Of a DNA stretch of 64,000 bases, positions 3,070-55,731 are shown in pieces. This DNA comes from Macrostomum lignano (Eukaryota). Made by a program: the position numbers and the translations under genes. Below the pieces are notes generated by a model. The model made no database searches and was not told the DNA's origin. It was given only the letters and a program-made list of their open reading frames with translations. The stretch spans positions 186,001 to 250,000 of the forward strand of contig NIVC01001024.1 in the NCBI GenBank assembly GCA_002269645.1, in the 5' to 3' direction. The number at the start of each line of letters is the position of its first letter. The stretch's first letter is position 1.

Positions 3070-4690
3070 TCAGGCGGTCTGAGACCTCGGCGAGCCGCCG
3101 CCATCCAGCAGGCAAAACTCGTGGCAGAAGCAGTTCTTGTCGTTCTCCGACAGGAACTGGAAGTCCTGGCTCTGAACAACGCTGCTGTAGGAAAAGTGTC
3201 GCCGAATTGCGCGCATCACGGCCAGCTGCAGCTGCGGCTCATGCAAGTGCCGGTTGCAGGTGAGCCACAGGCTGACGAGATCGCCTGGGCTCCAGCTGAT
3301 CCGAGTCTGAGTCTGAGACGCCTCGCCTGATGACGACGTCACAGAGCCGCCAGAGCCGGTCGGTTTGGCTGCGGCGTCCATCTGGAATGTAGAGATTTTA
3401 CAGAAAAATTACACGTCATTGTTTCATGACACCAAACGGATTAAAAATGGCCTAACTTTGAACTTTAACTTTGGGCGAAACATGCTTTGCTCTTAACTGT
3501 AAGGCGTAGGCCGGAAAATTTCCTAGTGACGAAAACCCAACAAATTAAAAGCAACAATACCCAATCCTTCCTTCTTTCACTACAAAGTGATTGCTCTCCG
3601 ATTTGTCCCTTTTGTGATCTAGAGGAGGAAACTTTGTAGCACACCGTCACCTTCTGCCCGCATTTCAACGAAGCGCAAAGACGGCACCTCGGACACCCGC
3701 TGGGACTGGACGAGCTCGCACCACCCCCGACCGGATCCGTGACCTGCCAAACCCTTCGGAAGCCGCCAGTCTTACCTGTAGGCAGTGGTTGATGAACCGA
3801 CTGCACTGCAGCAGAACCGCCGGCACGCCATATTGATCCGCAATGCGAGCCAGCATGCGAAACGTTTCAAACCTGGCAATGTTGAAGGACTGATGCGACT
3901 GCAGGTAGAACAGGAAGCACTTCATCTCGAAGGTGTACTCCGCGTCGCAGTGGATGGCCGCGTCTCGATCGGCGTCGAAGTTCCACAACGGCGAGGTGAG
4001 CAGCACGCGGCAGTAGTCGGAGTGCGTCAGCAGCAGCAGCCGGGGCGCCCGCACCGAGCCGTCCCGGCATCGCAGCGTCACCCAGGCCGATTCGTCGATG
4101 TCTTCTTCGCTGGGTCCGCCTTCCTCGTCCTCCTCATCATCGCCGCCGTAGCCGTTGCCGGGCACCCCGTCGAATGCGGCCACAGGCGGTGGCTTCAGGA
4201 ACGCTGGCGACGCGTCCGTGATGCGGAGGAGGAAGCAGAACTCGACAATGGATGCGCTCGGATCCGACGAAGTTTCCTCGGCGGCACCCGCAGGGTTCTC
4301 CAGATCGGAGCGGCTGAGGCAGGAGGGCAGCGTGACGATTTCTCTGCCGGTGGTCCAGGAGGCGGGCTCTGCCAGGGCTCGGCAGCTGACCAGATTGCCG
4401 TCAATCTGGATGCAGCAGGTCAGGCGAGCCCGGATCTCGTATTCGCAGCAGATGTCGAGAGCTCGAAGGCAGAAGACAACATGAAGTGAGTCGCTCTCGG
4501 CTAGGACAAGAATTCCGCAGCCGATGGAAGTGAATTCGAGACCGTCAACGCGGGAGAGCGGCTTGGACTTGACGGCTCCCTCGCTGGCGGCCTGTAGCAG
4601 ATCGAGCAGTTCCTGCTTGTTCATCCTGGTGCTCAGGCCGAACCGGATTCGGTCGTCCTCGCTAGGCGGCGATGCGGGATCCGTGCGCAT
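3070..4690 (-). CDS. MATH/TRAF-like + BTB/POZ domain protein (SPOP-like adaptor), 3 coding exons
   Basis: Exons 4690-3776, 3743-3651 and 3381-3070, all joined in phase 0 by GT-AG introns (CAG|GTAAG, AAG|GTGACG, TTCCAG|ATG). BTB-like segment: VTLRCRDGSVRAPRLLLLTHSDYCRVLL...LARIADQYGVPAVLLQCSRFI. The N-terminal MATH assignment is weaker. Confidence 0.8.
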
Positions 4691-5459
4691 GCTGACTAGC
4701 AAGATTTCGGTTCGCTATGGTTCCTGGAGTTACCAGTATACGAGCTTGACACGCGCAGGGAGTTGCCAATGTTTTGGCAAATTTTATTCTGCAAGCACTG
4801 GTGGCAGGGGTAGGGTGGGGGTGGGCCAACTGGCTGTGGTTGGCTGGCTGCTTGTCTGGATGCTTTCCAGTGTACAGTCCTGAGAGTTGGGTATTGTGAG
4901 TGTGAGAGACTCTATAGGGGTTCAATTAAAACATGCTTGTGCCCGAAAGCACTCGAATAACCTTAGGTGACCCTGTTCTCAGACTGTGAACACAGCTCAA
5001 ACTGTTTTGTTAGATTTTTAGCGTGCACAAGGCATCTGGAATTTTAATAGCGATGAAGCTGGGTGAAGTGGTCGTATAGAGACGAGATTTCGGAGTGAGT
5101 CTGGTGGGTGAGACAGGCTACAGAAGCAAATTTGCATCCAGTTTTTTCAAGAAATGGACAGATCAACACAGTCCTGTCCTCAAGTTTCGTTTAGAAGATT
5201 TGATGCCATTTTTAGAAACTTCGAACTACTTATCTCTAAAATATGAAGGCAAGTGGCGCATGCAGAGAGAGAGAGAGGTAATTTGCTTTTGGTTCGACAG
5301 CAGGGCATCTGTCTTCCATATTTGTGGATGAAACGATGCCCTGTCCATGGGGTCTGAAGGATGACGTCGTCGTCATGCGCTTTGTTTGGGACTGGAACTC
5401 ATGCGCTGCTTTTAGTGCCAAAATTTTCAAATCTTCTTAAATTTTAAAAGACTCATGAA

Positions 5460-5748
5460 GTGGCGCCCCTCCCTCAAATGAAATGGCGCCCCAGCTCTCT
5501 TAAATAAAATGGCGCCCCTCATTCAAATGAAATGGCGCCCCTCACTCAAATAAAATGGCGCCCCTCACTCAAATGAATTATGGCACCCCTCACTCAAATG
5601 AAATGGCGCCCCTCTTTTAAATGAAATGGCGCTCGTCCCCAAATGAAATGGCGCCCCTCACTCAAATGAATTGGCGCCCCTCTCCCAAATGAAATGGCGC
5701 CCCTCACTTAAATGAACTGGCGCCCCTCACTTAAATTAAAGGCGCCCC
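5460..5748. repeat. ~23-24-bp minisatellite (AAATGAAATGGCGCCCCTCACTC), left part of the array split by the pPolB element
   Basis: Tandem units; the same array resumes in the same orientation at 14489. Confidence 0.9.
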
Positions 5749-6416
5749 ACTACTAAGCAACGGTAGATCCGTCGATTTTGGAGGTGAGGTGGGTGTCAAC
5801 CCTCCGCGCCTCTCATTGGCTGGCGCCCCGATCACTAGGTGATCGATACCCGTATCGATATCGGCGCTCGGCGCGCGCGCGCGCCGCAGGCACCAAGCGC
5901 CGCAGGCGACCCTCCCCAGCCGTAGGCGCACCTACCGATATTAGATCCCAATAAATCAATCAGATCCCAAATCAATCAGATCCCAAATCAATCAGATCCC
6001 AAGCGCACCCTCCCGAGCCGCAGGCGCCCATGCAGCAGGCGCCCATGCCGCAGGCACCCCGAGTGTACACTCTACCGAGCCGCAGGCACCCCGAGTGTAC
6101 ACTCTACCGAGCCGCAGGCACCCCGAGTGTACACTCTACCGAGCCAAAGGTACACTCTACCACTCTCCCGATATGTACACTCTACCACTCTCCCGATATG
6201 TAGTCAACGATATTAGGCTAGTGAAAACTACTTATAGTAGGTGAAATTGCGTATATTTACATAAAAATGTAGATAAAACATATTGGTAGGTGAATAATGA
6301 CGCATAATACATATTGGAGCATATGAGCAGCAAAAACACACAATGTAGGTGCATTGGCAGAAATAGACAAAGCAGGTACTGTAGGCGCTACATAGGTGGA
6401 AATACACACAGCAGGT
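5749..6416 (+). repeat. Left terminal inverted repeat
   Basis: Reverse complement of ~13804-14488, e.g. TTTTGGAGGTG...GATCACTAGGTGATCGATACCCGTATCG and the AT-rich block ending GCAGGT. Contains internal ~31-bp tandem repeats. Confidence 0.9.
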
Positions 6417-7003
6417 TTACAAAGTGTACTTTCGATACATATCGGATCAATGTATAAAGCGGGTTTACAAGGCATGCATAAGGCGTAGTTGTATAATGCA
6501 GGTGCGCATGTATAATCAGATTATAGGCAAACGCCCAGGTGCAACAGACGCGTAAATAATGTCACACCGACTAAAGAGTAAATATTGTCTAACCCGCAGG
6601 TGCATAAAAATTTTAACCAAAAGCGGTTCGGGGAAATCCCAAAAGGGTGGTTCACGACCTAATGACCCGATATACTTTCAACACAATTAAACCCACAAGT
6701 GGGCTAGAAAAATGGACGTATTTCGATTGCGCTATCAGTACGCTAATCAGCGCAGCAAGTTTATGTCAGGAGTTCTACTCCAAGAGGCGGACCGCTGGGC
6801 CACAAACCGCCCCGAGGGAATAGGTGTCAAATGGGAGTTTTAACACTTGAGGGGATCCCTCATGTACAGTGGAGGTGCCAAATGAGTAAGGACCCCTAAG
6901 TACAGTGCGGGCGTAAAACCATTTTCATCCCCACGAGTCAAGGGATCCCAAGTGGGCACATAGGGGAATCCCAGGCGTGCAAAGACAGATCCTTATCTTT
7001 CAC

Positions 7004-10000
7004 TCACTCCCGAAAGCCATACGGGCGGCTAGCGGCCCCATACACCCTCTTAGTCATTACGCGCTGGAAAGTCTTGTCCATCTCGAGGGTCCGGATTGTA
7101 CAGCTAGACTTATCGCGCCTGAACTGGGCCTGGGGCAGGCGTACAGTCCCGCCGTGGCGCAGAATTTCCTGCAGCTCGTCCTCGCGCTCGGAAATCTCGG
7201 GGGTGACTCTGATGCCCTTGCACTTGAGCACCGAGTACAGCGACCCGTCGGGCTTCTCCACTAAGTACCGGTAGAGCTTGGGGCCTCCCGTGGTGAACTG
7301 TACCATGCGGCAGCCAGCAGGTACTTCGTCAGTCCACTGCCCCAAACTCGAACCGCCCGGAGGCTCGTACTCGCCCGGTGAGCAGCGGTATACAACCCTG
7401 GGAGGAGGAGAAGGATAAAGTGTTAAGGGGAGAAAGAGAGACAGAGACAGTTGAAAAAATTACTCACGAATCAGTATCGGCGTAAATGACGCGGGTTCCT
7501 AGACCCTCCAGAGCCTCGTAGAGTCGCAGCCGGGCGTGGGAGGTGGTGAAAACGCCAATAGGTACATTAGCGTACTTGAACGCCCGCTCGCCAGCACCGC
7601 CAAATCGGGGCTTGTACTCGAGCATCATGAAGCTCTCCCCAATTGGCTCGCACGACTTGACCTTGATCGAGGGGTCGGTCAGGCGCTGCAGCCACGCCTC
7701 GTAGCTGTCCACAATCTCTGTGGAGGTCAGGTCGTCGCGCTGGCAGAATTTGCCCCAGAGCCTGCAGGGAAAAATAAATTTTATGTAAGTAGAAAAACAC
7801 GGCCCCCACTGCAAGTAGAAAAAACTTACGAGTTTAGAAAAATCTTGGCCACAAAGCGCAAGCCAGGATTCTCCTCCACCTTTTCCAGCCGGACGCCTTC
7901 GCGCTCGAAAAAGCTGGCCATGTAGGCAGCCTTGGCGTCCTCAGCCATCCCCGGCGAACCGCTAGACTCGGCTTTGAGCTTCAAAAAAGTGTTTACATAA
8001 TCTGCAAACAGGCCCGTGCGAGTCTCGGTCCAATAGGCCAGGGCATGAACTGACTGCAGCTTGTAACCCAACTGCAGGGCTTTGTGGAGCTCTGGGGTCG
8101 ACCACGTGCCGCGGAGCATTCTCTCAGCGTCAGTGTGTGTACACTCGCTGCTGCACTGGGTCTCCATGCAGACGCGGCAGAGGCCGAAAACCAACTTCTT
8201 GTTAATCTTGGCGGGCAGTAGCGGGATGTGGAGATTGGTTGGCGGCAGAATCGACACCTCGGCGATGCCAAAATACCGGGCCAGCTGCAGCTCATCCAGT
8301 AGATGAGGCTCGGGGTGGTGTACCGGGTGCCCGACCGGGTACTTGTCAAACTTGTTGACAGTCGGGTAGAGCGACACCTAGGGGATAAGGATAAGATAAA
8401 CTCAAACGCATGTCAACTGTGTGTGTACAAGTGTACAAACTTACCACATCCCGATAGCGCAGCTCTACAGTCTCGGTGGCCTCGGCGTGCGGGACAAAAG
8501 CCTCGGTACGGCCGCCAAACAGGGCATCCTCCAGGCGAATAGGCTGCTGGACTGGCGCTCCCTCGTCCTGATAGTCGTGCTCCCACAGAACACGCACATT
8601 GTATGCAGTGGAGAGCAGCCGGGTGAAGCGCTCGGTCTCTTCATAAATTGCCCGCATTGGCTGGTTCTTGAGCGGGTGCAGCACGTCGCCGTTGGGGAAG
8701 CACTTGGGACAGCCATGGAAGAAACAGCCATGAAACTGCAGCACTGTCCTGGTCTCTGGGTCGAAGCCGTCGACCTTACGGCCCATGGCGAAAGCCTCGC
8801 CGCCAGAATCGGCTGTCCTCAACCGGCCGCCAAACTCGGTTGCATTTAAATGTGCCAGCCAGCACCGCGCCTTGTGCGACTGTACATCGGACCGGCGGGA
8901 AATCACCCCAAGAGTGTTGGGCTCCATAAACTTGGTGGTGAATACCGACATGGCCAAGCCCGCAATGGTGTTGGATTGAACAAATGCGTCCAGTCCGCAA
9001 ATGTCCTTAATCAGGCGGGCATATTTCAGGCAGCCTTCCCGCAAAATTAACGTGTCCTGCAGGCAATAGTCCAGGTACGCCTTATTAAAATTAAACACCT
9101 GTCCCTCCTGCTTGGCCAGCCAGTCGGCGATGGAGTCATGCTGCTTATTCTTCTTCCCGCCGTACATATCAATTGAGCAGTAGGGACCGACGTACCCCCA
9201 ATTTTGAGGCTGATTGAAGACGTGCGGGAAATCTCCTTTGGTCAGTTGGGTGCCCAAACCAAGCGCCTTTGGGAATTGCGCCAGACCAATAGGGATGAAA
9301 TTGAGGCTGTCCTTGAAGGTGATCTTGTCGCACTTCATGTACATTAGGCGGCTGTTCTGGAAGATCACCTGCGGCTTCTTCTTGGCCAGTCCGTTGAGTA
9401 GGGCGCCGAGCAGGAGGAATGCGTCATACGCAGAGCCATTGTGCGCAATAGCAATTGCCCCCTGCTTGAACACACTAGTCAGCCAGCAGTAAAATGCATC
9501 GATAGAGTGCGGCCCGACAGATACAAACTCTCGCATCCCACAGGCACAGTCATTGTGCGAGACACAGCTCGTGAAATCCAGCGCCAGATTGCGTCCCGCA
9601 ATGCAATTGGCTGAGCTGTGTAGTCCCCCGCACGCGCTGCAGCGGGGCCTGGGGAAGAGTTTGGGACACGCCTCGCAGGAGGTGGCAGCCGTAACCAAGT
9701 GTACCCGGTGCTGCTTGCCAGAGTCCACGTACGTCTCGAAATCATAGTAAACATACGGGGCGCTAGACTCTTTGGCTTTTGGCGGGGTGACAAAGCACTC
9801 GTGGGTGGCAGTTTCGTCGTACTGCTTGCAGACTGGGCACTTGGCGTAACCACACTGATGCTCAGGGGGCTGGCCTACTTTTAGTTCTTCTAGATAGCCA
9901 CACGTGCCGCAAACGTGGACCGAATCACAGCGCGATCTGCCGGCCTTATTCTTGCGTTTGTGATTTTCTAGGCACTGAGCATTATAGCAATTTAGCCCGC

Positions 10001-11991
10001 AATCATGGCATCTTACATATGCGCGGTTTGCCTTACAGTTGGAGCCCGGAGTCTTGCATGTACTGCAGGCATCGGCGCACTTGTGCTCGGCGTTGGCGCA
10101 GTCGTAGGCCATCTCGCACTTGGGGCAGTAGTGATCGGAGCCGAAAAACGCTGGCAGCTTGGTGACCACATTAAAGTGCTGCTCGACCAGGTGTAGGTGC
10201 AGAATCTCGGTGCCCGGCAGGTTGAAGATGCACCTGTTGGCCTCCTCTGCGCGGTACACGCGTACACCAAAATCGCGCCCCGGATGCAGCCGGTTCAGGG
10301 CTCGGATCGCTTCGGGCAGTGCATCCACGCCGAAAGGACCAGCCTGCGAGACGGTTTGAAGAGTCTGTGTGGAGGGTAAAATATTTCTTTTAGTATTCCT
10401 TATCGTAAAATTTCTTATCAGAAAATTTTAGTATTCCCTGATACTGCGTAAAAATTCTTATCAGAAAAATACTAGAAACTTACCGTGTAGAGGCCTGCCT
10501 CGATTTGTAGCTCAGCCACCAGCTTAGTCTGCGTGGGCGAATTGGCCTTGATCGTGCGCCACAGCCGCTCGGTGATGGACTTGGCCACGAATTGCAGGTA
10601 GGCGCAGGCCACGACCAGAGCGCGCAGCAGGCATCTCTTGTCCGAGTTGGTGATGCGGACATAGTGCCTGGAGAAGGCATGCCGCTCTTCTAGATGCTTG
10701 TTCTCGAGGGCACAGCCACCTCGAGGCACCCAGGCCTTTAGCAGACGGACAGAAAAGTTGCCTGACAATACAGTGGCATCCGACTGCACAATCTTGTCAA
10801 TGTGCTTAAACAACAATTCAGCCGTCATGCGGGCTGCACGCACCGGGGGAGTATGGGCTGCTTTGAGCATATTGTCGCTCTCGAATTTCGCGGCCATAAA
10901 GTCATCACCAGCCAAATCTTGCTTGAAAACTTCGAGCATGTCAGCAAACACCTCCCGCAAATCTTCGGTGTTGGTAATACGCACCACATACTCGACACCC
11001 TTTGCCCTAAACTTGGGCAGGTCACGCTGATTATCCAGCCGGGCCGTAAAACCTGCATGGGGGGAATGGGGGAGTGTGAGTCAGCCCGGGTCTGTGTGGG
11101 AAATGGGGGGCGGGATAACTCACCCGGTCCGGTAACAGATTCCGGCTGTGTTGGCGGGACAAACGCGTCTGAAAAAACACAAGGAGATAAAAAACCAGAA
11201 GAATCTGTCATTTTCCTGGCCCCAGCGTGTTTCCCAGCCCTAGCCCCAGCAATTTCTTAACAGAGTTTACTCTGCTGTCCCCGCAGCAACTCTCTGCAAT
11301 TTCTTATCTGCACCCCCGCTGCAGCCTGTCGCAGCAGTCTTTGTTTACTCACCCCTGCAACTCTCTGTCGCAGCAATTTGCACCTAGCTGCAGCCTGTCT
11401 GGGTAGCGCCCCTGCCAATTTCTTATCAGTCTGTCCCCGCGCTACACAGTCCCAGCAACTCTCTGCCCCCACCCGGCTGTAACTTGTCTAGCCTGCCCCA
11501 ACGATTCTGCAGCAATTTCTTATCTGCCGCAGCACCCTAGCAACTGTCTGTTTTTGCAGCAATTTCTTATCAGCACACCCCTCCCTGTCTAGACAACACC
11601 CCACCCCAGTCTTTGTTTACTCACCCCTGCAACTCTCTGTCGCAGCAATTTGCACCCCAGCTGCAGCCTGTCTGGACAACACCCCCCTAGCAGCAATTTC
11701 TTATCAGCACACACCCGGCTGAAACTTGTCTAGCCCTCCCCTGCAACTCTCTGTTACAGACCCTGCCGCAGCACCCCACCCTAGCAACTCCAGTCTAGAC
11801 CCCTGCAGCTGTCGCAGCAGTCTTTGTTGTTTACTCTGCGGTCCCACAGACCCTGCAGCTGCTGCTGCTGCTCAGCCCCTACCCCCCACCCTAGCAACTA
11901 CAGTCTAGACAGAAATTAATTAAAACTTACCATAAAGACGTTGCCTCTTGTCAGCCAGAAAAGCAGTTGCGGTGGCGCTGCGTTTAGCCAT
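7004..11991 (-). CDS. polB: Protein-primed family B DNA polymerase (Polinton type), 7 exons, 1,269 aa
   Basis: Exons 11991-11931, 11168-11124, 11052-10484, 10343-8445, 8377-7830, 7761-7468 and 7397-7004 total 3,810 nt in frame, all with GT-AG introns. Exo I YYDFET, Exo II HNGSAYD, Exo III YCLQD; motif A DV|VSLYP, motif B KIFLNS|LWGKF, motif C YADTDS|VV; GPKLY; inserted VSR-like FHGCFFHGCPKC. Confidence 0.93.
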
Positions 11992-12229
11992 TTTGCAAAC
12001 AGAGAGCGTGAGAGAGCGGAGAGAGAAGGATTATCTCTCTACCCTGGCTCTGGGGGTCTGTATATATACTAAAAAATCTGCTCAGCTCGCCTGTTATTGG
12101 TCAATCGCCAAAAACCAACCAAAATCATCAAAAATCACCCCCAAAATCATCACCCACCCCACCCTCCATCCGGGGGTATATAAGGCGCTGCACGGCTGTC
12201 AGAGAGCTCTCTGCTGCTGCTGCTAAATC
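11992..12229. promoter_or_regulatory. Putative bidirectional promoter between pPolB and the PC4-like gene
   Basis: Head-to-head ATGs 238 bp apart; TATA-like TATATATA near 12061 and TATATAA near 12178; ATTGG/CAAT near 12095. Confidence 0.55.
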
Positions 12230-12727
12230 ATGTCTTCTATCTCTCTATACGAAAACTTTGTGGCGCGGAAGCCCACATTTGAAACTGAACACAACTTGAT
12301 TGAAATTCGGCGTCTCTACACCAACGAGGCTGGAGTGTGGAAGGACGGCTTCCCTGCAATCTACTTGAGCGAGCCAGAGTGGAAGAAGCTCGAAGCTGCG
12401 CGCCCTGACCTGGAGGCTGCTGCCCGCCTTCACGTGAACAAGCGGGTCCTGTTGGGCAATTTCAAGGCAGTTGAAGCTTCGCGAGGGAGGATCCGTTTGC
12501 TGCGCAATTGGCTCAATCAGGACCCAAAGTTTAATTGGCGCTACACGATCGAATTCACGCCTGAACTGTGGCGCAGGATGTTTGCCGCCCGTTTGGACAA
12601 GCTCTTCAAGCCGGCACCTGAGGCACCCCCTCCAGCCAAGCGAGTCAAGACAGAGGACAATCTGCAGGACTGCCTTGACAGCATCAAACCCTACCCTTGG
12701 GGAAATCTGTTTGACGAGGGTTGCTAA
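12230..12727 (+). CDS. PC4/Sub1-like ssDNA-binding protein, probably a tandem PC4 fold, 165 aa
   Basis: IEIRRLY...WKDG...IYLSEPEWKKL resembles the PC4 pattern (VDIREYY..G..KPG..GISL...QW..L). A second similar unit is IRLLRNW...YTIEFTPELWRRM. NLS-like PAKRVK; TATA upstream. Confidence 0.7.
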   Translation: MSSISLYENFVARKPTFETEHNLIEIRRLYTNEAGVWKDGFPAIYLSEPEWKKLEAARPDLEAAARLHVNKRVLLGNFKAVEASRGRIRLLRNWLNQDPKFNWRYTIEFTPELWRRMFAARLDKLFKPAPEAPPPAKRVKTEDNLQDCLDSIKPYPWGNLFDEGC

Positions 12728-13803
12728 TTGAGGCGTGCCGCATCCGTACAGCGCGAACCCGATTTTGGTAAGCTTAATTTCATATAAATCGTATATAAAT
12801 TACATATAATCTGTCTACATTGAATATTTTTTACTTTGACAGATGTTTCGAGAGCGCTGATGAGGAGGAGACTGCCCTGGCTGAAGATCGCGCTCGAGTT
12901 TGACTGATAAGGGAATTTCTCTTTGTACTCTGTTACTCTCTGCATGCACTGTACTTGGGCCTCGCAACACACTGGGGGGATCCCTCAACTTGGAGAGCTA
13001 CCCTCTGGGGATCCACTAAAACCCTCATTTGGGGTGGGAGCTGCGGTAAAGTTTGACTGGAATTCTCTTTGTATGCGGTCTGTTACTCTACCTCCACTGT
13101 ACATTGGGGCGGGATCCTTCCTCATTTAACACCCCGGAGCGCACTGTGCATTGGGGGGCGGGATTCCTTCATCATTTGACACCCGGGAGCGCACTGTACT
13201 TGGGATCCGCTAAAACCCCTATTTGTATGCGGTCTGTTATTCTGCCCGCCCTGTGCAATGTGAGGGGTCCTTGATAACCCCCCATTTGGGGAGGATTGGA
13301 ATGCTCTCTGCCTGAACTGTACTTGGGATCCCCTTGAAAAAACCTTATTTGGGGCTTGGGGAGGAATGGAATTTCTCTCTGCCCGCACTGTACTGAGGAT
13401 CCCCTCTCGAAACATTGGCCCCTCGTACCCTATTTGGAAGCTATGGGTTGCAGACTAGGAACGCTCCTACCTGAACTGTACTCCGCTAGGATCCCCCGGC
13501 CCTGGGGAGGAATTTCTCTATGTTACTCCGCCCGCACTGTACATTGGGATCCCCCGGCCCTGACTCTGGGGGCGTGTCTCGAATATCCTGGGCTGGATAT
13601 TTTACTTTGCACCTATAAGCTTAATTTTGCATACATATGTTGTATTATACTTAACTTCCAGTGTGTGTATTTTATCCTATGCACTGAAATTTGTACCTGC
13701 GGGTTAATATGCAAAATGTATCGTTTAAAATGCGCCTACATTATATGCTATGTAATTTTCCTGTATTATACTCAATTTGCACCTACATTGTGTGTAAGTA
13801 TGC

Positions 13804-14488
13804 ACCTGCTGTGTGTGTATTTCCACCTATGTAGCGCCTACAGTACCTGCTTTGTCTATTTCTGCCCATGCACCTACATTGTGTGTTTTTGCTGCTCATA
13901 TGCTCCAATATGTATTATGCGTCATTATTCACACCTACCAATATGTTTTATCTACTTTTTATGTAAATATACGCAATTTCATCTACTATAAGTAGTTTTC
14001 ACTAGCCTAATATCGTTGACTACATATCGGGAGAGTGGTAGAGTGTACATATCGGTAGAGTGTACACTCGGGGCGCCTGCGGCTCGGTAGAGTGTACACT
14101 CGGGGTGCCTGCGGCTCGGTAGAGTGTACACTCGGGGTGCCTGCGGCTCGGTAGAGTGTACACTCGGGGTGCTTGCGGCATGGGGCGCCTGCAGCATGGG
14201 GGCCTGCGACATACATATCGGAAGGGTGCGCATACATATCGGGAGGGTACCCCTGCGGGATGGGCGCCTGCTGCTCTGGAGGGTCGCCTGCGGCTCGGGA
14301 GGGTGCACATATCGGGAGGGTGCGCCTGCGGCGCTTGGCGCCACGCGCCTGCGGCGCGCGCGCACCGAGCGCCGATATCGATACGGGTATCGATCACCTA
14401 GTGATCGGGGCGCCAGCCAATGAGAGGCGAGGAGGGTTGACACCCACCCCACCTCCAAAAACGCCCGGAAAACTGCACGTATAGTAGT
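13804..14488 (-). repeat. Right terminal inverted repeat
   Basis: Reverse complement of the left TIR. Confidence 0.9.
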
Positions 14489-14610
14489 CGCCCCTCTCTC
14501 AAATGAAATGGCGCCCCTCTCCCAAATGAAATGGCGCCCCTCACTCAAATGAATTGGCGCCCCTCTCCCAAATGAAATGGCGCCTCTACCTCAAATGAAA
14601 TGGCGCCCCT
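14489..14610. repeat. Right part of the interrupted GGCGCCCC minisatellite
   Basis: Same unit and orientation as 5460-5748. Confidence 0.9.
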
Positions 14611-18236: not shown

Positions 18237-19601
18237 GGGTCTACGACGTTTGCCAGCGGGACGTTTGCCAGCCGACGTTTGCCTGCGGGACGTTTGCCAG
18301 CCGACGTTTGCCAGCCGACGTTTGCCTGCCGGAAGTTTGCCAGCCAAAATTTGCTAGCCAATATAAAGCCAGTCAGTGAAAAATTTGATACTGAAACATT
18401 CGCAGTTTAGCGGTTTGACAAAAACCGTTTTTACTCCAACTTTTTGACGGTTATTCGCATGTATACAAGTTTGTAAGCTAAATCTATAAATTATGCAATT
18501 TATGCAAAATCTATATAAATTATGCAATTTATATAGATATAAATTATTATGCAATTTATATAGATTTACATCTAATATCCAGTTTAACAACGATTTTCTT
18601 TGAATGTGAAAATATTGTTTACTTTTGACAATTGTGTATCGTTTTTCCCAGTTTGAGATGTTTGATTTTTGATGTGCGAAAGAAGACGCGCAGAAATTAC
18701 AACGGGAATCTCCAGCGATTTGAGTTATGAGGTAAACAAAAAGAGCTGCTGAGCGGTAATTCTGGCTCATATATTTCTCAGTTCATTGGGAGATCCAAAA
18801 GTAAGCAAATTGATACCAATTCTGTTGTATTACTACTCAAGTAAGCAAGGAAACCGCGATCTCAACGTACATGTGTAGACGAGTCGAATGCGGTACGTTT
18901 TTATAGTAAGCTATATAGCTGAATAGCCAGACAAGCCGCCAGTAGCAAGCTAGTAGAATAGCAAGCGCTAGACACTACGTATGCAAAGCTTAGTCATGCC
19001 AAGGACTACTAAAGTAGAAGTACGCAGCACTCGAAATCTATGAAAAATGTTTTGAAGGCCATAGGGAGATAGGAAGTTTTCATCTTTTCAGCACAACAAT
19101 TGTTATTGCTTTCATACGAGGCAAACCCAATGTTCATCTTTTGATATGTTGTGCCAAAATCGTTGTTAAACTAGATATTAGACGTTAGACTGATGAACTG
19201 CATAATTTATATATTTTGCATAAATTTCATAATTTATAGATTTTGCTTTCAAACTTGTATATATGCGAATAACCGTCAAAAAGTTGGAGTAAAAACGGTT
19301 TTTGTCAAACCGCTAAACTGCGAATGTTTCAGTATCAAATTTTTCACTGACTGGCTTTATATTGGCTAGCAAATTTTGGCTGGCAAACTTCCGGCAGGCA
19401 AACGTCGGCTGGCAAACGTCGGCTGGCAAACATCCGGCAGGCAAACGTCCGGCAGGCAAACTTCGGCTGGCAAACGTCCCACTGGCAAACGTCGGCTGGC
19501 AAACGTCGGCTGGCAAATGTCGGCTGGCAAACGTCCCGCAGGCAAACGTCGGCTGGCAAATGTCGGCTGGCAAACGTCCCGCAGGCAAACGTCGCTATCC
19601 C
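18237..19601. mobile_element. Non-autonomous Mutator (MULE)/foldback-like DNA transposon, 1,365 bp
   Basis: 9-bp TSD GCATCACTT at 18228-18236 and 19602-19610; GGG...CCC ends; ~360-440-bp TIRs starting with tandem CGACGTTTGCC(A/T)GC repeats; no transposase ORF. Confidence 0.85.
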
Positions 19602-22921: not shown

Positions 22922-23344
22922 GGTAACTATATGGCTTTGTGAAGCTTTGTGTGCGAAGGACTGCTTTTTTTCAAAAAAAGGTTTCTAGGACTCTTATAGC
23001 TTCGCTTGGATAGAGACAACAGCTAGCTCATATATGAGATCAGAGTACACTTTTATAACAACCTACAGTGTATTCTGGATGCGCTCTTCACGGGTGTACA
23101 TAATTGATAAGCAACTATACAATAAGCTTGTGCAGAGTGCAATAAGAGGTGCAGGGTGAGACCGTTGTGAGGAGAGAGACAGAGAGATAATGACAGTGGG
23201 TCTCTAGCAGGACTGACTGTCCGACTGCCCCTTCTTGTTCTTGTTGTTAGGCGAAGAAATTTTCATTTTTCTTTCTTGTAAAAGAGACGTCTGATGCTGG
23301 ATAGAAACATGGCTGCATGTCTATCAAAATGCATGAATTCTCCC

Positions 23345-24160
23345 CCCCCCCTAACCCCATCCACCTCCCTCTCACCCCTTTCTCCCTCCTTCTCACCCCT
23401 ATCCCCCTCCCTCTCACCCCTATCCCCCTCCCTCTCGCCCCTATCCCCCTCCCTCTCACCCCTATCCCTCTCCATCTCACCCCTCTCCCTCTCCCCCCTC
23501 TCCCTCTCCCTCTCGCCCCTATCCCCCTCCATCTCACCCCTCTCCCTCTCCCTCTCACCCCTCTCCCTCTCCCTCTCACCCTTATCCCTCTCCCTCTCAC
23601 CCCTATCTCTCTCCCTCTCACCCCTATCCCTCTCCCTCTCACCCCTATCCCCCTCCCTCTCGCCCCTATCCCCCTCCCTCTCACCCCTATCCCTCTCCAT
23701 CTCACCCCTCTCCCTCTCCCCCTCTCCCTCTCCCTCTCGCCCCTATCCCCCTCCCTCTCGCCCCTATCCCCCTCCATCTCACCCCTCTCCCTCTCCCTCT
23801 CACCCCTCTCCCTCTCCCTCTCACCCTTATCCCTCTCCCTCTCACCCCTCTCCCTCTCCCTCTCACCCCTCTCCCTCTCCCTCTCACCCTTATCCCTCTC
23901 CCTCTCACCCCTATCTCTCTCCCTCTCACCCCTATCCCTCTCCCTCTCACCCCTATCTCTCTCCCTCTCACCCCTTTCTCCCTCCTTCTCACCCCTATCC
24001 CTCTCCCTCTCACCCCTATCTCTCTCCCTCTCACCCCTTTCTCCCTCCTTCTCACCCCTATCCCTCTCCCTCTCACCCCTATCTCTCCCTCTCACCCCTA
24101 TCCTCTCCTTCTCACCCCTATCCTCTCCTTCTCACCCCTATCCCCTCCCTCTCACCCTAC
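23345..24160. repeat. C/T-rich ~21-bp array (CTCACCCCTATCCCCCTCCCT)
   Basis: Tandem units; reverse complement of the 26385-27000 array. Confidence 0.95.
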
Positions 24161-24638
24161 CCGATTGCTCAAGGGCATACTAAATGCACTAACAATACAA
24201 CAAACATACGCCCCTTATCCGACCTAAGTCCCGTTTCTAAGACAACCGAGTGTATCGGGGGCCTCAAATTTCCAAAGAGAGTTTTGAGGGCTCAGGAAAT
24301 TGCGACAGTGCTTCGGAGCCAGAGTCTGGCACTCTTCCCCGATTTTCCTGCATTCGAATAGCATTAGGATGAGTGGCTGCTCAAGGAAAGCCGAGAAGAG
24401 TCACGGAGACAGTTTATGTGCAAGAGAGATTTTCGCTTCGCGTGTTCCAATCAGAGTTGATCCGGCAGAGAGGTTTGCGTCTTTGACGGTTATTAGCCCC
24501 CCTGGCCGATAGAAACACAGGAAAAAGCAAGCTTTGCATGTATCGCTGAGGGATTCGATTTCGAGAAAGAAGAAACGAGAAAGCAGGTTGAATATTTTTG
24601 AGAAAAAGCAAAGGTCTTCCTTCAGCAGCTGCACCGCC

Positions 24639-27600
24639 ATGGCTGGACTGGGGATGTCACCTGAGGACAAAAGGTTAATAACCGAGGACTGGGCAGCCGC
24701 TTCTGCGGACAGGCGAGCCCTGGGAACCGCCATCTTCATCAGGTAAGGGAAGAAGATGCTCATACATGATCATACTTGATCATACATGAACATACATGAT
24801 CATAATCGCTCATACATGAACATACATGATCATAACCGCTAATACATGAACATACATGATCATAACCGCTCATACATGAACATACATGATCATAACCGCT
24901 CATACATGAACATACATGATCATAACCGCTCATACATGAACATACATGATCATAAACGCTCATACATGAACATACATGATCATAACCGCTCATACATGAA
25001 CATACATGATCATAACCGCTCATACATGAACATACATGATCATAACCGCTCATACATGAACATACATGATCATAAACGCTCATACATGAACATACATGAT
25101 CATAACCGCTCATACATGAACATACATGATCATAAACGCTCATAGATGCTCACACACGATCAGATGCTCGTACATTAACATAGACGCTCATAAACGCTCA
25201 TAAATTATCATGAACGCTCATACACGATCATAAATGTTCACAAAGGCTCATAAACCCTCTTACACGATCAAAAAAGCTCATAAACAATCATGCACGATCA
25301 TACACAACCATAAACGCTCATACACGCTCAGGCAGGATCATAAAAGATCATTCACGCTTATAAACGCTCATACAAGATTATACGCTTCAAATTTGGACAG
25401 CTCGCCGTTTAGTCAATGGGCAAAAGTAGCAGATATCCAAACACTAGACATGCAGGCCACCCTTTAGACTTCTTAAACTCAGTACTCATTGAAGTCTGAC
25501 AGCGAGTGGGACAGCAAGAGGACAACCGTCCATGGTGTACATGTAGCTTCTTTGATTAATGATCCTTCCCTATCATCTTTATCACCACTCACCTCTACCC
25601 CCTCTCACCCCTACCCCCTCCCTCTCATATGATGATCTATGCCAACTAAATGACAAAGGTTATCAGCCAGAATAATAAGGTACAATAAGTGTGTCGAACT
25701 TCCCAGATAACCATTAACCATCTACCTCATCTACCTTACAAACTGTGTAATTTAATTACATACTGTCTACAATCTCTGTCACCTAAAGGAATCCTATGGC
25801 CTGTCTACGCAAACGTAAAAATATATACTGCTGATAATGATGACGTTTTAGTCTCTGCAGGACTGAGCTGGACAATGAGCATTGCATATAGTGTAGATTC
25901 TCATTAAGAGGCTGCTACAAGTCAGAAGCACTGTTGCTATGCACATTGACTCGACTATTAGCGATGCTCAAAAATAATCTTTATACCTCCTTGCCTATAG
26001 CTACCTGAGGAGACACCTCTGACAAGCGATGTCCCAGTAATCCGGGGACACCCCTGACACAAAAAGTGCACTACCAGCCAAAAAAACCTGGAATTCCAAA
26101 TTTCTACAAGGCTACTATTAGTAAACGGTATGCACTCTCAAAAACCGCCGCAGGCTGTTCGAGATGTACCCGGAGGTGCAGTCAATGTTCAGCCAGTTTC
26201 GCGGCAAACCGCTATATCAGCTGACTACATCGCCTAATCTAAAAGCTCACGGACTTCGGGTGGTGAACACGCTTGACGCCGCCATCAGCGACCTGCAGCG
26301 GGACGGCGAGACGTCGGAGGAGTCACTGCGGCTGATTGGAGAGTCGCACAGGCGGCGGGGAGTGCAGATGAGCCACTTTGAGGTGGGTGAGAGGGAGGGG
26401 GTTGGGGTGAGAGGGAGGGGGATAGGGGTGAGAGGGAGAGGGATAGGGGTGAGAGGGAGGGGGATAGGGGTCAGAGGGAGGGGGATAGGGGTCAGAGGGA
26501 GGGGGATAGGGGTCAGAGGGAGGGGGTAGGGGTGAGAGGCAGGGGGTTAGGGGTGAGAGGGAGGGGATAGGGGTGAGAGGGAGGGGATAGGGGTGAGAGC
26601 CAGGGGGATAGGGGTTAGAGGGAGGGGGATAGGGGTCAGAGGGAGGGGGACAGGGGTGAGAGGCAGGGGGTTAGGGGAGAGAGGGAGGGGGATAGGGGTG
26701 AGAGGCAGGGGTTAGGGGTAAGAGGGAGGGGGATAGAGGTAAGAGGGAGGGGGATAGGGGTAAGAGGGAGGGGGATAGGGGTGAGAAAGAGGGGGATAGG
26801 GGTGAGAGGCAGGGGTTAGGGGTAAGAGGGAGGGGGATAGGGGTAAGAGGGAGGGGGATAGGGGTGAGAGGGAGGGGATAGGGGTGAGAGGCAGGGGTTA
26901 GGGGTGAGAGGCAGGGGTTAGGGGTAAGAGGGAGGGGGATAGGGGTGAGGGGGAGGGGGATAGGGGTGAGAGGGAGGGGGTAGGGGTGAGAGGGGGGCAT
27001 CACAACCCCGAAATATCACATTGTCGAAAGTCCAAAACGCGGGGGGTTGTCAGAGTTTTCGAGAATGTGATATTTAGGGTTTATGATGGGGCTTGTCAGA
27101 GTTTTCGAGAATGTGATATTTAGGGTTTATGATGGGGCCTGTCAGAGTTTTCGAGAATGTGATATTTAGGGTTTATGATGGGGCTTGTCAGAGTTTTCGA
27201 GAATGTGATATTTAGGGTTTATGATGGGGCCTGTCAGAGTTTTCGAGAATGTGATATTTAGGGTTTATGATGGGGCTTGTCAGAGTTTTCGAGAATGTGA
27301 TACTTAGGGTTTATGATGGGGCTTGTCAGAGTTTTCGAGAATGTGATATTTAGGGTTTATGATGGGGCCTGTCAGAGTTTTCGAGAATGTGATATTTAGG
27401 GTTTATGATGGGGCTTGTCAGAGTTTTCGAGAATGTGATATTTAGGGTTTATGATGGGGCCTGTCAAAGTTTTCAAGAATGTGATATTTAGGGTTTATGA
27501 TGGGGCCTGTCAGAGTTTTCAAGAATGTGATATTTAGGGTTTATGATGGGGCCTGTCAGAGTTTTCGAGAATGTGATATTTAGGGTTTATGATGGGGCTT

Positions 27601-52560: not shown

Positions 52561-53809
52561 TACAACACGCAACATCGAATTGCAAAATGTCACATCAAAA
52601 ATATTGCACAGTACATTGAATACAAAATTAAATAAGAATAACTTTGCATCAATACAAATTAATTAAGCTTCTTTCCATTCACTCCAAACAAGAAAGACTA
52701 TCAAAAGATGTTGGCGTAAAACATAATTTTCTTTGAGAAAATAATCTGAAATTAACAACCTGTCAAGTGTAATCTGAGCAAGAGATTAAGTCTTACTGAA
52801 AAATTTGCACACGTCACGTGCACATAAAAAATGGAGAAAATTTGCAAAGCAACAGCCGCTGGGGGGGATTAAGACAGGGGCAAGGGCAAGGCTTCAGCTT
52901 AGAAAAGGTGAGCCTAGAATTTCCTTTTAAATCGAATAGCTCTTTGAGCCGAAGCCGTTAGAGCTTAATCCCAGTGACGTCATAGACTTATCCGATGAAA
53001 CGTTTTTATAGCTGGTCAGTTTATGAGCAGGAGAGTGGCTACTCAACTTTCTTATATTCTGTTCTCACTTTACTACGAGCTATAACCGCTAATTCTCTTA
53101 ATTGCGTCTGACGGGTGTCTCAGTGTCTCAGCAGTCTCAGTGTTGCTGATCTTTGACATGTTTACCATAAGCAAGGTTGATCAAGTCAATCCACTGTTAT
53201 TGATTGCACGCAAACGTGGCCCCGTCAAAGCAATCGCCAAGGAAGTTAATTAGGGCGTTACAAGGGATTTGAGAAACCTCAAGGGAGCCGGAAAAAACAA
53301 CGCAAAAAAATCGTGCTATTGCGCGCGAAAGATGGTGAAAAACACAGCCTCTTGTACTTCAGCTTCTTCAGTTTCTCTTCAAAATAGACCTGCCCTTGAA
53401 AAGTGCTACACCCCCTGTTTATTTCTAGGGTGAACTGTTAGACCCAAAATCAGTCCATGAACAGAAGTTGATCCTACAAAGGCGTTAATTCAATCAACGG
53501 ATTATCTTATTGTTGAGCCTTTGGCGGCTCTGCTTTCAAAAAACATTTGCGTCATCTTAGCTACAGAGAGATGGAAAAGCTTTGGCCAACTTGAGGTGAC
53601 CTTGTTTTAAGTTCTAAAAATAGCCGGCCAACCCAATATTCACATCTCGTTAGTGAAATGCTTTCCAAAAGAACTTTTAAGGACCAAGTAGCTTTTTCGT
53701 CTAAAAATTAATCTGTAAAAAATGATGAGAAGAGGTAAAAATTTGAGTGATAGACGTGAATGATAGTTTAAATTAGATGCTACCTACCTGCTGGAACCTC
53801 TTGCGCCCC

Positions 53810-55613
53810 TTGGTGCTGGCGCCCCTTGGTGCTGGCGCCCCTTGGTGCTGGCGCCCCTTGGTGCTGGCGCCCCTTGGTGCTGGCGCCCCTTGGTGCTGGC
53901 GCCCCTTGGTGCTGGCGCCCCTTGGTGCTGGCGCCCCTTGGTGCTGGCGCCCCTTGGTGCTGGCGCCCCTTGGTGCTGGCGCCCCTTGGTGCTAAAGCCC
54001 CTTGGTGCTAAAGCCCCTTGGTGCTGGCGCCCCTTGGTGCTGGCGCCCCTTGGTGCTAAAGCCCCTTGGTGCTGGCGCCCCTTGGTGCTGGCGCCCCTTG
54101 GTGCTGGCGCCCCTTGGTGCTGGCGCCCCTTGGTGCTGGCGCCCCTTGGTGCTGGCGCCCCTTGGTGCTGGCGCCCCTTGGTGCTGGCGCCCCTTGGTGC
54201 TGGCGCCCCTTGGTGCTAAAGCCCCTTGGTGCTAAAGCCCCTTGGTGCTAAAGCCCCTTGGTGCTAAAGCCCCTTGGTGCTGGCGCCCCTTGGTGCTGGC
54301 GCCCCTTGGTGCTGGCGCCCCTTGGTGCTGGCGCCCCTTGGTGCTGGCGCCCCTTGGTGCTAAAGCCCCTTGGTGCTGGCGCCCCTTGGTGCTGGCGCCC
54401 CTTGGTGCTGGCGCCCCTTGGTGCTGGCGCCCCTTGGTGCTGGCGCCCCTTGGTGCTGGCGCCCCTTGGTGCTGGCGCCCCTTGGTGCTGGCGCCCCTTG
54501 GTGCTGGCGCCCCTTGGTGCTGGCGCCCCTTGGTGCTGGCGCCCCTTGGTGCTGGCGCCCCTTGGTGCTAAAGCCCCTTGGTGCTAAAGCCCCTTGGTGC
54601 TGGCGCCCCTTGGTGCTAAAGCCCCTTGGTGCTAAAGCCCCTTGGTGCTAAAGCCCCTTGGTGCTGGCGCCCCTTGGTGCTGGCGCCCCTTGGTGCTGGC
54701 GCCCCTTGGTGCTGGCGCCCCTTGGTGCTAAAGCCCCTTGGTGCTGGCGCCCCTTGGTGCTGGCGCCCCTTGGTGCTGGCGCCCCTTGGTGCTGGCGCCC
54801 CTTGGTGCTGGCGCCCCTTGGTGCTGGCGCCCCTTGGTGCTGGCGCCCCTTGGTGCTGGCGCCCCTTGGTGCTGGCGCCCCTTGGTGCTGGCGCCCCTTG
54901 GTGCTAAAGCCCCTTGGTGCTAAAGCCCCTTGGTGCTAAAGCCCCTTGGTGCTAAAGCCCCTTGGTGCTAAAGCCCCTTGGTGCTAAAGCCCCTTGGTGC
55001 TAAAGCCCCTTGGTGCTAAAGCCCCTTGGTGCTAAAGCCCCTTGGTGCTAAAGCCCCTTGGTGCTAAAGCCCCTTGGTGCTAAAGCCCCTTGGTGCTAAA
55101 GCCCCTTGGTGCTAAAGCCCCTTGGTGCTAAAGCCCCTTGGTGCTAAAGCCCCTTGGTGCTAAAGCCCCTTGGTGCTAAAGCCCCTTGGTGCTAAAGCCC
55201 CTTGGTGCTAAAGCCCCTTGGTGCTAAAGCCCCTTGGTGCTAAAGCCCCTTGGTGCTAAAGCCCCTTGGTGCTAAAGCCCCTTGGTGCTAAAGCCCCTTG
55301 GTGCTAAAGCCCCTTGGTGCTAAAGCCCCTTGGTGCTAAAGCCCCTTGGTGCTAAAGCCCCTTGGTGCTAAAGCCCCTTGGTGCTAAAGCCCCTTGGTGC
55401 TAAAGCCCCTTGGTGCTAAAGCCCCTTGGTGCTAAAGCCCCTTGGTGCTAAAGCCCCTTGGTGCTAAAGCCCCTTGGTGCTAAAGCCCCTTGGTGCTAAA
55501 GCCCCTTGGTGCTAAAGCCCCTTGGTGCTAAAGCCCCTTGGTGCTAAAGCCCCTTGGTGCTAAAGCCCCTTGGTGCTAAAGCCCCTTGGTGCTAAAGCCC
55601 CTTGGTGCTAAAG
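53810..55613. repeat. 16-bp minisatellite, two variants (GCCCCTTGGTGCTGGC / GCCCCTTGGTGCTAAA)
   Basis: About 110 tandem units. Confidence 0.98.
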
Positions 55614-55731
55614 CCTGAAGCAATTAAAACAAACATTAATTTTTGATGTTCAAATAGTTTAAATAACGTGAAATCCCTGATTGAAGGCTCAAGTTTTTTT
55701 TCTTTTTCAACCTCCTGAATCCAGAGCAGTG

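Follow-up and report, generated by a model that had tools for sequence, protein, structure and literature searches.

Non-autonomous and palindromic derivatives of Polintons, as well as satellite phages such as P4, use the enzymes of a helper in trans, and P4 has kept its own replicase while borrowing its capsid. All Polintons (Mavericks) encode, by definition, a retroviral-like integrase together with a family B DNA polymerase that is protein-primed (pPolB) (PMC5499653). They span 15-20 kb (PMC5718144), and in vertebrates the intact copies are intronless, have ends of the form 5'-(AG)3 or 5'-(AGT)2 and are flanked by target site duplications (TSDs) of 6 bp, Polinton particles being reported as not yet observed (PMC8097293). 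The cytoplasmic linear plasmids of yeasts (pGKL1/pGKL2 type) are Polinton-derived and capsid-less, with terminal inverted repeats (TIRs) and a terminal protein (TP)-vOTU-pPolB arrangement (bioRxiv 2024.03.18.585575), and a 9-kb yeast plasmid is accompanied by a 13-kb helper (PMC13348850). Transpovirons, of about 7 kb, travel within a helper virus and integrate into it (PMC5499653). Here we describe an 8740-bp element at positions 5749-14488 of a 64,000-nucleotide stretch of the Macrostomum lignano genome (assembly GCA_002269645.1, contig NIVC01001024.1, positions 186,001 to 250,000, forward strand; the whole stretch is called the window). It carries a pPolB gene between inverted repeats, and it probably represents a Polinton-derived nuclear replicon lineage devoid of capsid and integrase genes, which is integrated in trans and accompanied by palindromic satellites.

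The likeness to Polintons (eupolintoviruses, of the pPolB2 type with a VSR insertion) covers full-length polymerase homology, nesting in the polymerase tree, long TIRs, a 3-nt terminal repeat and the 6-bp TSD. On the other hand, the element is without integrase, capsids, ATPase and protease, measures about 9 kb, has six spliceosomal introns in a gene which is intronless in intact vertebrate Mavericks, and has ends of the form ACT//AGT instead of AGT//ACT or AG//CT. Judged by its gene content it falls outside the Polinton definition, although it is predicted to replicate like a Polinton. With the yeast plasmids it shares Polinton derivation, the lack of capsids, the TP-vOTU-pPolB order and TIRs; these plasmids are cytoplasmic, however, while the element has an animal host and generates 6-bp TSDs on integration, and since its polymerase gene is spliced (six GT-AG introns removed in putative RNA contigs) it is nuclear and not of the cytoplasmic or mitochondrial plasmid type. 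Transpovirons are likewise linear, reduced from the Polinton supergroup, bounded by TIRs and free of structural genes, but they have a Tlr1-like helicase and parasitize mimiviruses in amoebae, whereas the element has an intact proofreading pPolB and inserts into host chromosomes; a family search of its proteins gave no match to helicase families (Tlr1-like SF1 type). Ordinary non-autonomous transposons are short, non-coding and carry the ends of their helper, in contrast to a coding replicon accompanied by equally long palindromes, with ends unseen on possible helpers.

Our literature search, whose scope did not include Repbase and supplements, found neither such a layout nor Macrostomum Polintons described, and an earlier description is possible (for further comparison see PMC12166617, PMC3014272, PMC6431247 and bioRxiv 2026.10.13.758929). 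A replicase-only lineage that is selected, expressed and recently inserted in about a hundred places shows that replication and integration modules are separable inside an animal nucleus. It offers a living counterpart of the transition through which linear plasmids and transpovirons are thought to have arisen from Polintons. As the host is a cultured worm, Polinton replication and the virion question are open to direct testing.

The element and its spliced polymerase gene

The element starts with 5'-ACTACTA, finishes with TAGTAGT-3' and is flanked on each side by CGCCCC. Its features are given below in window positions, with arms assigned to A and B, the two coding subtypes of its family.

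5743-5748, plus strand: left 6-bp TSD CGCCCC, within a 23-bp host minisatellite (5455-5748, 14489-14610)
5749-5755, plus: invariant terminal heptamer ACTACTA, a 3-nt repeat, with polarity reverse to the canonical Polinton AGTAGT start
5756-5775, plus: subterminal hypervariable 20-nt block, unlike the right-end block in the window copy
5749-6416, plus: left inverted repeat, about 670 bp, about 86% alike to the right end, with internal 16/25/32-bp repeats
6417-6850, plus: remainder of the left arm, derived from subtype A (97% to loci C1016, C1573 and C307; unmatched in the subtype-B loci tested)
7004-7397, minus: pPolB exon 7, amino acids 1146-1276 and stop
7468-7761, minus: pPolB exon 6, with YADTDS, polymerase motif C
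7830-8377, minus: pPolB exon 5, with SLYP and K..LNSLWGK, motifs A and B
8445-10364, minus: pPolB exon 4, with vOTU His region, Cys-rich fingers, exonuclease I-III and VSR-like insertion
10484-11052, minus: pPolB exon 3, with terminal-protein-like domain (conserved Ser, PRGG linker) and vOTU catalytic Cys
11124-11168, minus: pPolB exon 2, 45 nt
11931-11991, minus: pPolB exon 1, with ATG at 11991, followed by the 762-nt intron
11992-12229, no strand: putative divergent promoter region, 238 bp, with two TATA-like boxes at about 12061 and 12177, to which a promoter function is tentatively ascribed
12230-12727, plus: open reading frame 2 (ORF2), 165 amino acids, PC4-like, putative single-strand DNA-binding protein
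12728-12905, plus: third-gene remnant, with a spliced intron (joint 12766-12842) and a short last exon that resembles the end of subtype-A ORF3 in patches
13090-14488, minus: right arm, subtype B, ending in TAGTAGT, equal to the full 1.2-1.4-kb TIR of non-recombinant copies
13804-14488, minus: part of the right arm pairing with the left end in the window copy, variable block at 14462-14481
14489-14494, plus: right 6-bp TSD CGCCCC

An earlier reading made from the letters alone (the sequence-only reading) had described a two-gene element with an exact CGCCCC duplication, matching terminal heptamers, TIRs of about 650 bp, a spliced pPolB and a PC4-like single-strand DNA-binding protein. The duplication and the heptamers were found as described. 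Taken alone, the window TSD is weak, because each unit of the 23-bp minisatellite at the insertion site contains CGCCCC; one unit is broken by the element, with the hexamer left on both sides. The repeat length was nearly right, at about 670 bp, yet identity is about 86%, nucleotides 8-27 are wholly different between the two ends, and the arms of other subtype-B copies extend over 1.2-1.4 kb. The ends differ because the window copy is recombinant, its left arm coming from subtype A and its right arm from subtype B.

The claim of a spliced pPolB held throughout. The gene lies on the minus strand and has seven exons with an open frame of 1276 codons, interrupted by six introns, all GT-AG, of 762, 71, 119, 67, 68 and 70 nt, and three exon frames match PF03175 in Pfam (E 8e-17, 5e-13 and 0.32). 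By its motifs it is a predicted protein-primed family B polymerase composed of TP, vOTU, exonuclease, VSR-like and polymerase parts, with exonuclease and polymerase motifs intact; in exon 4, exonuclease motifs I-III are YYDFE 431, AHNG 532 and DYCLQD 657, and the VSR-like insertion spans about amino acids 756-822. The VSR and vOTU labels derive from motifs together with PMC10748475 and bioRxiv 2024.03.18.585575. The insertion agrees with the marine pPolB2 subgroup, and VSR insertions are also present in nematode and mollusc Polinton polymerases (PMC10748475). Across the exon-3 alignment, the vOTU Cys does not vary. A model of this exon from a 74-row alignment (predicted local distance difference test, pLDDT, 88.8) has a four- to five-stranded sheet and two helices, with the conserved Ser between helix 2 and the final strand, a topology matched by the terminal-protein fold and linking position (bioRxiv 2024.03.18.585575), which suggests a terminal-protein-like domain. 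Its top viral structure match is an adintovirus protein (E 2.8e-4), and little-finger domains of Y-polymerases are among its top PDB structure matches with middling scores (Z 6.7 and 6.4; the best with a root-mean-square deviation of 3.0 and 89 aligned); a PDB sequence search of the exon gave no match.

The introns were skipped at the predicted borders in contigs of three runs, from three studies, guessed to be RNA (five introns in 3/3 runs, intron 1 in 2/3), while none of the six was skipped in a fourth run compared. Compared with 13 copies, nonsynonymous divergence (dN) was 0.006-0.010 and synonymous divergence (dS) 0.043-0.105, with dN/dS of about 0.08-0.16, so that the gene is, by this comparison, under purifying selection. 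Frameshifting indels in the exons were absent from 7 of the 17 other loci (exons covered) and present in 10, mostly as 1-nt deletions that may represent long-read sequencing error. Macrostomum lignano proteins are 91-99% identical to exon 4, and blastp gave full-length homology to Polinton polymerases at about 26-35% identity. In a midpoint-rooted FastTree of 36 sequences (no clade test; a polymerase from a nested Polinton, three partial named sequences and most unnamed matches left out), pPolB of this and of a second family share a long branch (support 1.0) that falls among animal Polinton polymerases, adjacent to one Exaiptasia sequence and two unnamed sequences (0.94). No relative was found in viral contigs, and metagenomes gave a single one, at 40%, known from its ORF list.

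As for the gene count, pPolB and ORF2 stood, while behind ORF2 there is a remnant of a third gene, which subtype A has in the form of ORF3, spliced and of 336 codons. The joint 12766-12842, which marks this remnant, was seen in contigs of the runs guessed to be RNA. The subtypes diverge at 12654, inside ORF2, with C-termini that are homologous yet different. That ORF2 is PC4-like is suggested, weakly, by a sub-threshold Pfam match (E 0.034) and by Atlas (0.87; best family matches 10/10 in the PC4 family or clan), both of which agree with the sequence-only reading as a lead; a single-sequence structure model was uninformative (pLDDT 38). ORF3 is acidic and Ala/Ser/Thr-rich, with no known relative and no assignment in Pfam or Atlas.

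A family with common ends, giant palindromes and a variable end block

Eighteen other loci resemble the element at about 95-98% identity across long stretches (19 of 450 candidates scored). An exact 6-bp TSD flanks all 18 elements with both ends located, i.e. the window copy and 17/17 others, with 17 different hexamers, and all 18 start with 5'-ACTACTA; the copy count proposed by the sequence-only reading thus gives a multi-copy family with distinct TSDs. The terminus pattern ACTACTA-N20-TTTTGGAG occurs 225 times in the genome (106 forward, 119 reverse) and its reversed control 0 times, genome counts being lower bounds or estimates. Four layouts have these ends in common. Subtype B, with 9 copies of 8455-9112 bp if the window copy is counted, encodes pPolB and ORF2, and subtype A (6 measured, 9474-9773 bp) is like B up to window position 12654, followed by another ORF2 tail and ORF3. 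A longer parent beyond 12654 was considered and rejected, as the 9 diverging copies have one common ORF3 tail and reach only about 9.5-9.8 kb where both ends are located. The window copy joins an A left arm to a B right arm, C41 and C135 are reciprocal, and C428, 8699 bp long with its own TSD, is chimeric, combining the pPolB gene's 3' half with a palindrome arm; polymerase types and palindromes therefore recombine with each other. Altogether, a spliced gene, purifying selection, many recent insertions with 6-bp TSDs and arm exchange are shown, and the family is real and recently active.

The remaining layout consists of palindromes with family ends and TSDs. The one in C436 (L032, G000:C436:114944-124196) is 9253 bp long and 99.4% self-complementary; CA repeats and an imperfect hairpin occupy its centre. 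The one in C56 (L031) measures 8381 bp. They have only the outer 300-420 bp and small patches in common with the coding types. None of their ORFs exceeds 190 codons, and a translated comparison with helper genes gave no match. The C436 palindrome could be a dimer of a 4.6-kb hairpin-ended DNA. A 901-nt palindrome arm probe found 120 candidates, of which the 40 scored were 98-100% alike, suggesting about 60 palindromes in the genome, or about half of the elements. Together with about 50 polymerase loci at at least 82% identity (hand count), they account for roughly all 225-264 termini. Twenty probes into unclassified elements gave 8 of palindrome type, 1 A-like, 3 with nested Gypsy/mariner sequences and 8 without assignment. 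A coding second segment was also considered and rejected, both fully read non-polymerase elements being palindromes; micro-exon genes are not covered by this check.

Within the termini, nucleotides 8-27 form a block fixed in length at 20 nt and variable at 19/20 positions (17 distinct terminal 60-mers), whereas nucleotides 36-60 are nearly fixed, and the block variants resemble shuffled blocks. Among 34 pairs of listed termini (hand count), the 20-mer is identical at both ends in 23, one base off in 7 and widely different in 4, namely C37, C41, C135 and C428, the last three of which are shown recombinants like the window copy. In adenovirus, ends are corrected via a panhandle during strand displacement. 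The matched blocks would fit such a correction, or the copying of end to end by another route, and in either case nucleotides 8-27 are a built-in tag for tracing end correction and recombination. The palindromes, the three-gene subtype, the recombinant origin of the window copy and this hypervariable block are all additions to the sequence-only reading.

Some loci have more complex termini. In G000:C843:284969-294324 (9356 bp in total), C201 and C261, a single left terminus precedes two right ones (spacing 4560, 1348 and 7708 bp, respectively), resembling concatemers or recombinants. In G000:C558:43471-53355 and C190:160719-163952, family ends surround Gypsy gag-pol and mariner-type transposase sequences, probably nested insertions.

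Proposed supply of integrase and virion functions

The sequence-only reading had also claimed that the element has neither integrase nor virion genes and no room for them, and this was borne out. Nine proteins of complete Polintons from the same genome gave no integrase, capsid, ATPase or protease-like match at E < 0.2 in the window element, part of a subtype-A copy, the two palindromes and two second-family stretches, while the positive control, another complete Polinton family, was recovered at 1e-5 to 1e-20. The non-coding room amounts to gaps of 587, 238 and 1076 nt and the 762-nt intron. Complete-type Polintons, AT-rich and with long unspliced ORFs, are abundant in the genome (73 capsid matches; integrase 150/150 scored, of 1452 candidates), and C67 unites genes for capsid, ATPase and integrase; where protease, minor capsid or polymerase is named in these regions, the label is a reading of motifs and cross-matches. 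A genome-wide A32 search gave 0 matches despite the existence of such ORFs and, being insensitive, was not used.

The best explanation is a lineage that long ago lost the genes for integrase and virion and survives as a satellite. In all likelihood, the vOTU domain would free the terminal protein, which would prime at the ACT-repeat ends; polymerase and PC4-like protein would copy a free linear DNA of about 9 kb by strand displacement, and the displaced strand would close on its inverted repeats, making both ends alike. The TP-like domain, the matched ends and the recombinants are indirect signs of such a free linear form. The gene-free palindromes of about 9 kb with the same ends are quite likely second-order satellites copied by the element polymerase. 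Since a Polinton integrase produces just such a constant 6-bp TSD at unrelated sites, supply in trans is the best inference for insertion, and a Polinton-type DDE integrase from a complete Polinton family of the same genome is its probable source.

The element span lies between 8.1 and 9.9 kb in 29 of 34 pairs, regardless of content, the median being 8.9 kb in 16 elements of palindrome type and 9.5 kb in 12 of polymerase type. As short parasites should be favoured in a purely intracellular replicon, the padding to 9 kb is a hint of packaging, and packaging in borrowed capsids could account for the narrow range, with somewhat less than an even chance. Still more tentatively, one may envisage three tiers in an animal germ line, where complete Polintons supply integrase and capsids to an old line of spliced satellites with only a polymerase, and these satellites copy gene-free palindromes padded to an equal packaging size of about 9 kb, all of them swapping a 20-nt hypervariable tag at the origin within a pool of free DNA. 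If true, this would be the first Polinton satellite system and indirect evidence of particles in animal Polintons.

Several points weigh against a satellite lineage integrated and perhaps packaged by complete Polintons. The autonomous Polinton with ACTACTA ends, which the sequence-only reading had proposed as helper, was not found; the one certain complete-type end starts with AGTAGT, three complete-type regions examined have no DNA in common with the ACTACTA family, and blastp gave no match between the nested Polinton polymerase and the element pPolB. As the ends differ from those of complete Polintons, a shared integrase must tolerate a different end, and the reversed polarity is not accounted for by integration in trans. 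Regarding size, 5 of the 34 pairs fall outside the range, three contigs offered a choice between two partner ends, one 9.9-kb length contains Gypsy sequence, and sizes are non-independent through descent from about four or five founders. Moreover, 100 of the 225 termini were listed, the 8 probes without assignment all came from single-ended termini, the ORF2 assignment is weak with changes among copies too few to show selection, and the RNA nature of the runs is a guess, their contigs standing for the family and not necessarily for the window copy.

Some of these points would suit a multipartite Polinton, in which a rarer, unseen segment of about 9 kb with the same ends has the integrase and capsid genes and the set is self-sufficient, as in bidnaviruses or paired yeast plasmids. 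Common ends and size across different contents, ends unlike those of the complete Polintons seen, the 125 termini beyond those listed and the 8 unassigned probes are all in its favour. However, the polymerase loci and the palindromes (120 arm candidates) cover roughly all termini, none of the 73 capsid matches lies between listed terminus pairs, and only 1 of the 150 integrase matches does, in C271, as part of a nested AGTAGT-ended Polinton; this suggests little room for an abundant integrase-bearing segment, though a rare one may exist, and we regard the multipartite arrangement as unlikely. C271 (40.6 kb between termini) was also considered as a large family form and rejected, the excess being the nested AT-rich Polinton.

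Replication as proposed could instead be combined with insertion by a non-Polinton DDE enzyme, such as a long terminal repeat (LTR)-retrotransposon or Ginger-like integrase, and a capsid stage would then be absent. The genome does contain Gypsy and mariner sequences, and the ends are unmatched by the complete Polintons seen, but exactly 6 bp in 18/18 elements is the Polinton value (PMC8097293). The integrated ends also lack the TG...CA rule of LTR elements, and such insertion appears improbable. Self-integration by the element's own products, either subtype-A ORF3 or the VSR-like nuclease within the polymerase, could draw on the lack of an ORF3 homologue and again on ends unlike those of possible helpers, yet it is very doubtful given the acidic, Ala/Ser/Thr-rich composition of ORF3 with no integrase match in Pfam or Atlas, the VSR insertions of nematode and mollusc Polintons (PMC10748475), and a fixed TSD which would point to a DDE enzyme. 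Finally, decayed deletion products of a complete Polinton, passively mobilised with the polymerase as passenger, are largely refuted, in agreement with the sequence-only reading, and highly improbable: subtype B lacks most of ORF3, 10/17 other loci have frameshifting indels and pPolB-plus-TIR loci without integrase are mentioned as C. elegans remnants (bioRxiv 2024.01.15.575659), but 18 closely similar loci with distinct TSDs, dN/dS, spliced putative transcripts, introns in common with a 63%-identical family and the absence of a colinear longer parent among the scored matches argue otherwise, and the mostly 1-nt deletions are of the kind expected from long-read error.

Second family and neighbouring sequences

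A second family has a polymerase 63-64% identical to that of the first (17/67 scored loci; 54-74% exon identity), with introns at the same sites in 4/4 testable cases, and sharing intron sites at 63% identity implies that the spliced polymerase is old. The absence of integrase and capsid genes was partly seen, in two stretches. One of its elements encodes a dUTPase (L059:624-1145, minus strand; PF00692, E 1.6e-30) and a 241-codon ORF without assignment. The sequence ACTACTATCTGAAAAATGAAG (28 matches) was rejected as the family terminus, having identical flanks and a TSD in 0/6 and being an internal motif. Apparent giant palindromes occur here as well (G000:C657:75410-84662, L061-L064), where symmetric probes are 99.7% alike about one centre over at least 9.25 kb.

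Among the complete-type Polintons, the AT-rich, AGTAGT-ended copy in C271 (L058, G000:C271:282500-292499) sits in intron 1 of a first-family element, and complete Polintons were therefore active after that element had inserted. A resident Polinton integrase ORF (L054:7134-7937, minus strand) has a weak, sub-threshold phospholipase A2-like N-terminal match (PF08398, E 4e-4), and L054:9315-9414 holds a 100-bp element with ends AGTAGTAGT...ACTACTACT. In G000:C292 (694437 and 695262), about 800 bp separate a family terminus and a gene for Polinton integrase.

The host part of the window contains ORFs for a BTB-like protein (E 0.003; 3665-4714, minus), an amidase (PF01425; 33747-34478, minus) and a rhodopsin-family receptor (PF00001; 57170-58399, plus). 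Its other repeats are a pair of 271-bp inverted repeats, minisatellite arrays in inverted orientation and a 16-bp tandem array, at 18245-19478, 23342-26877 and 53677-55700, respectively.

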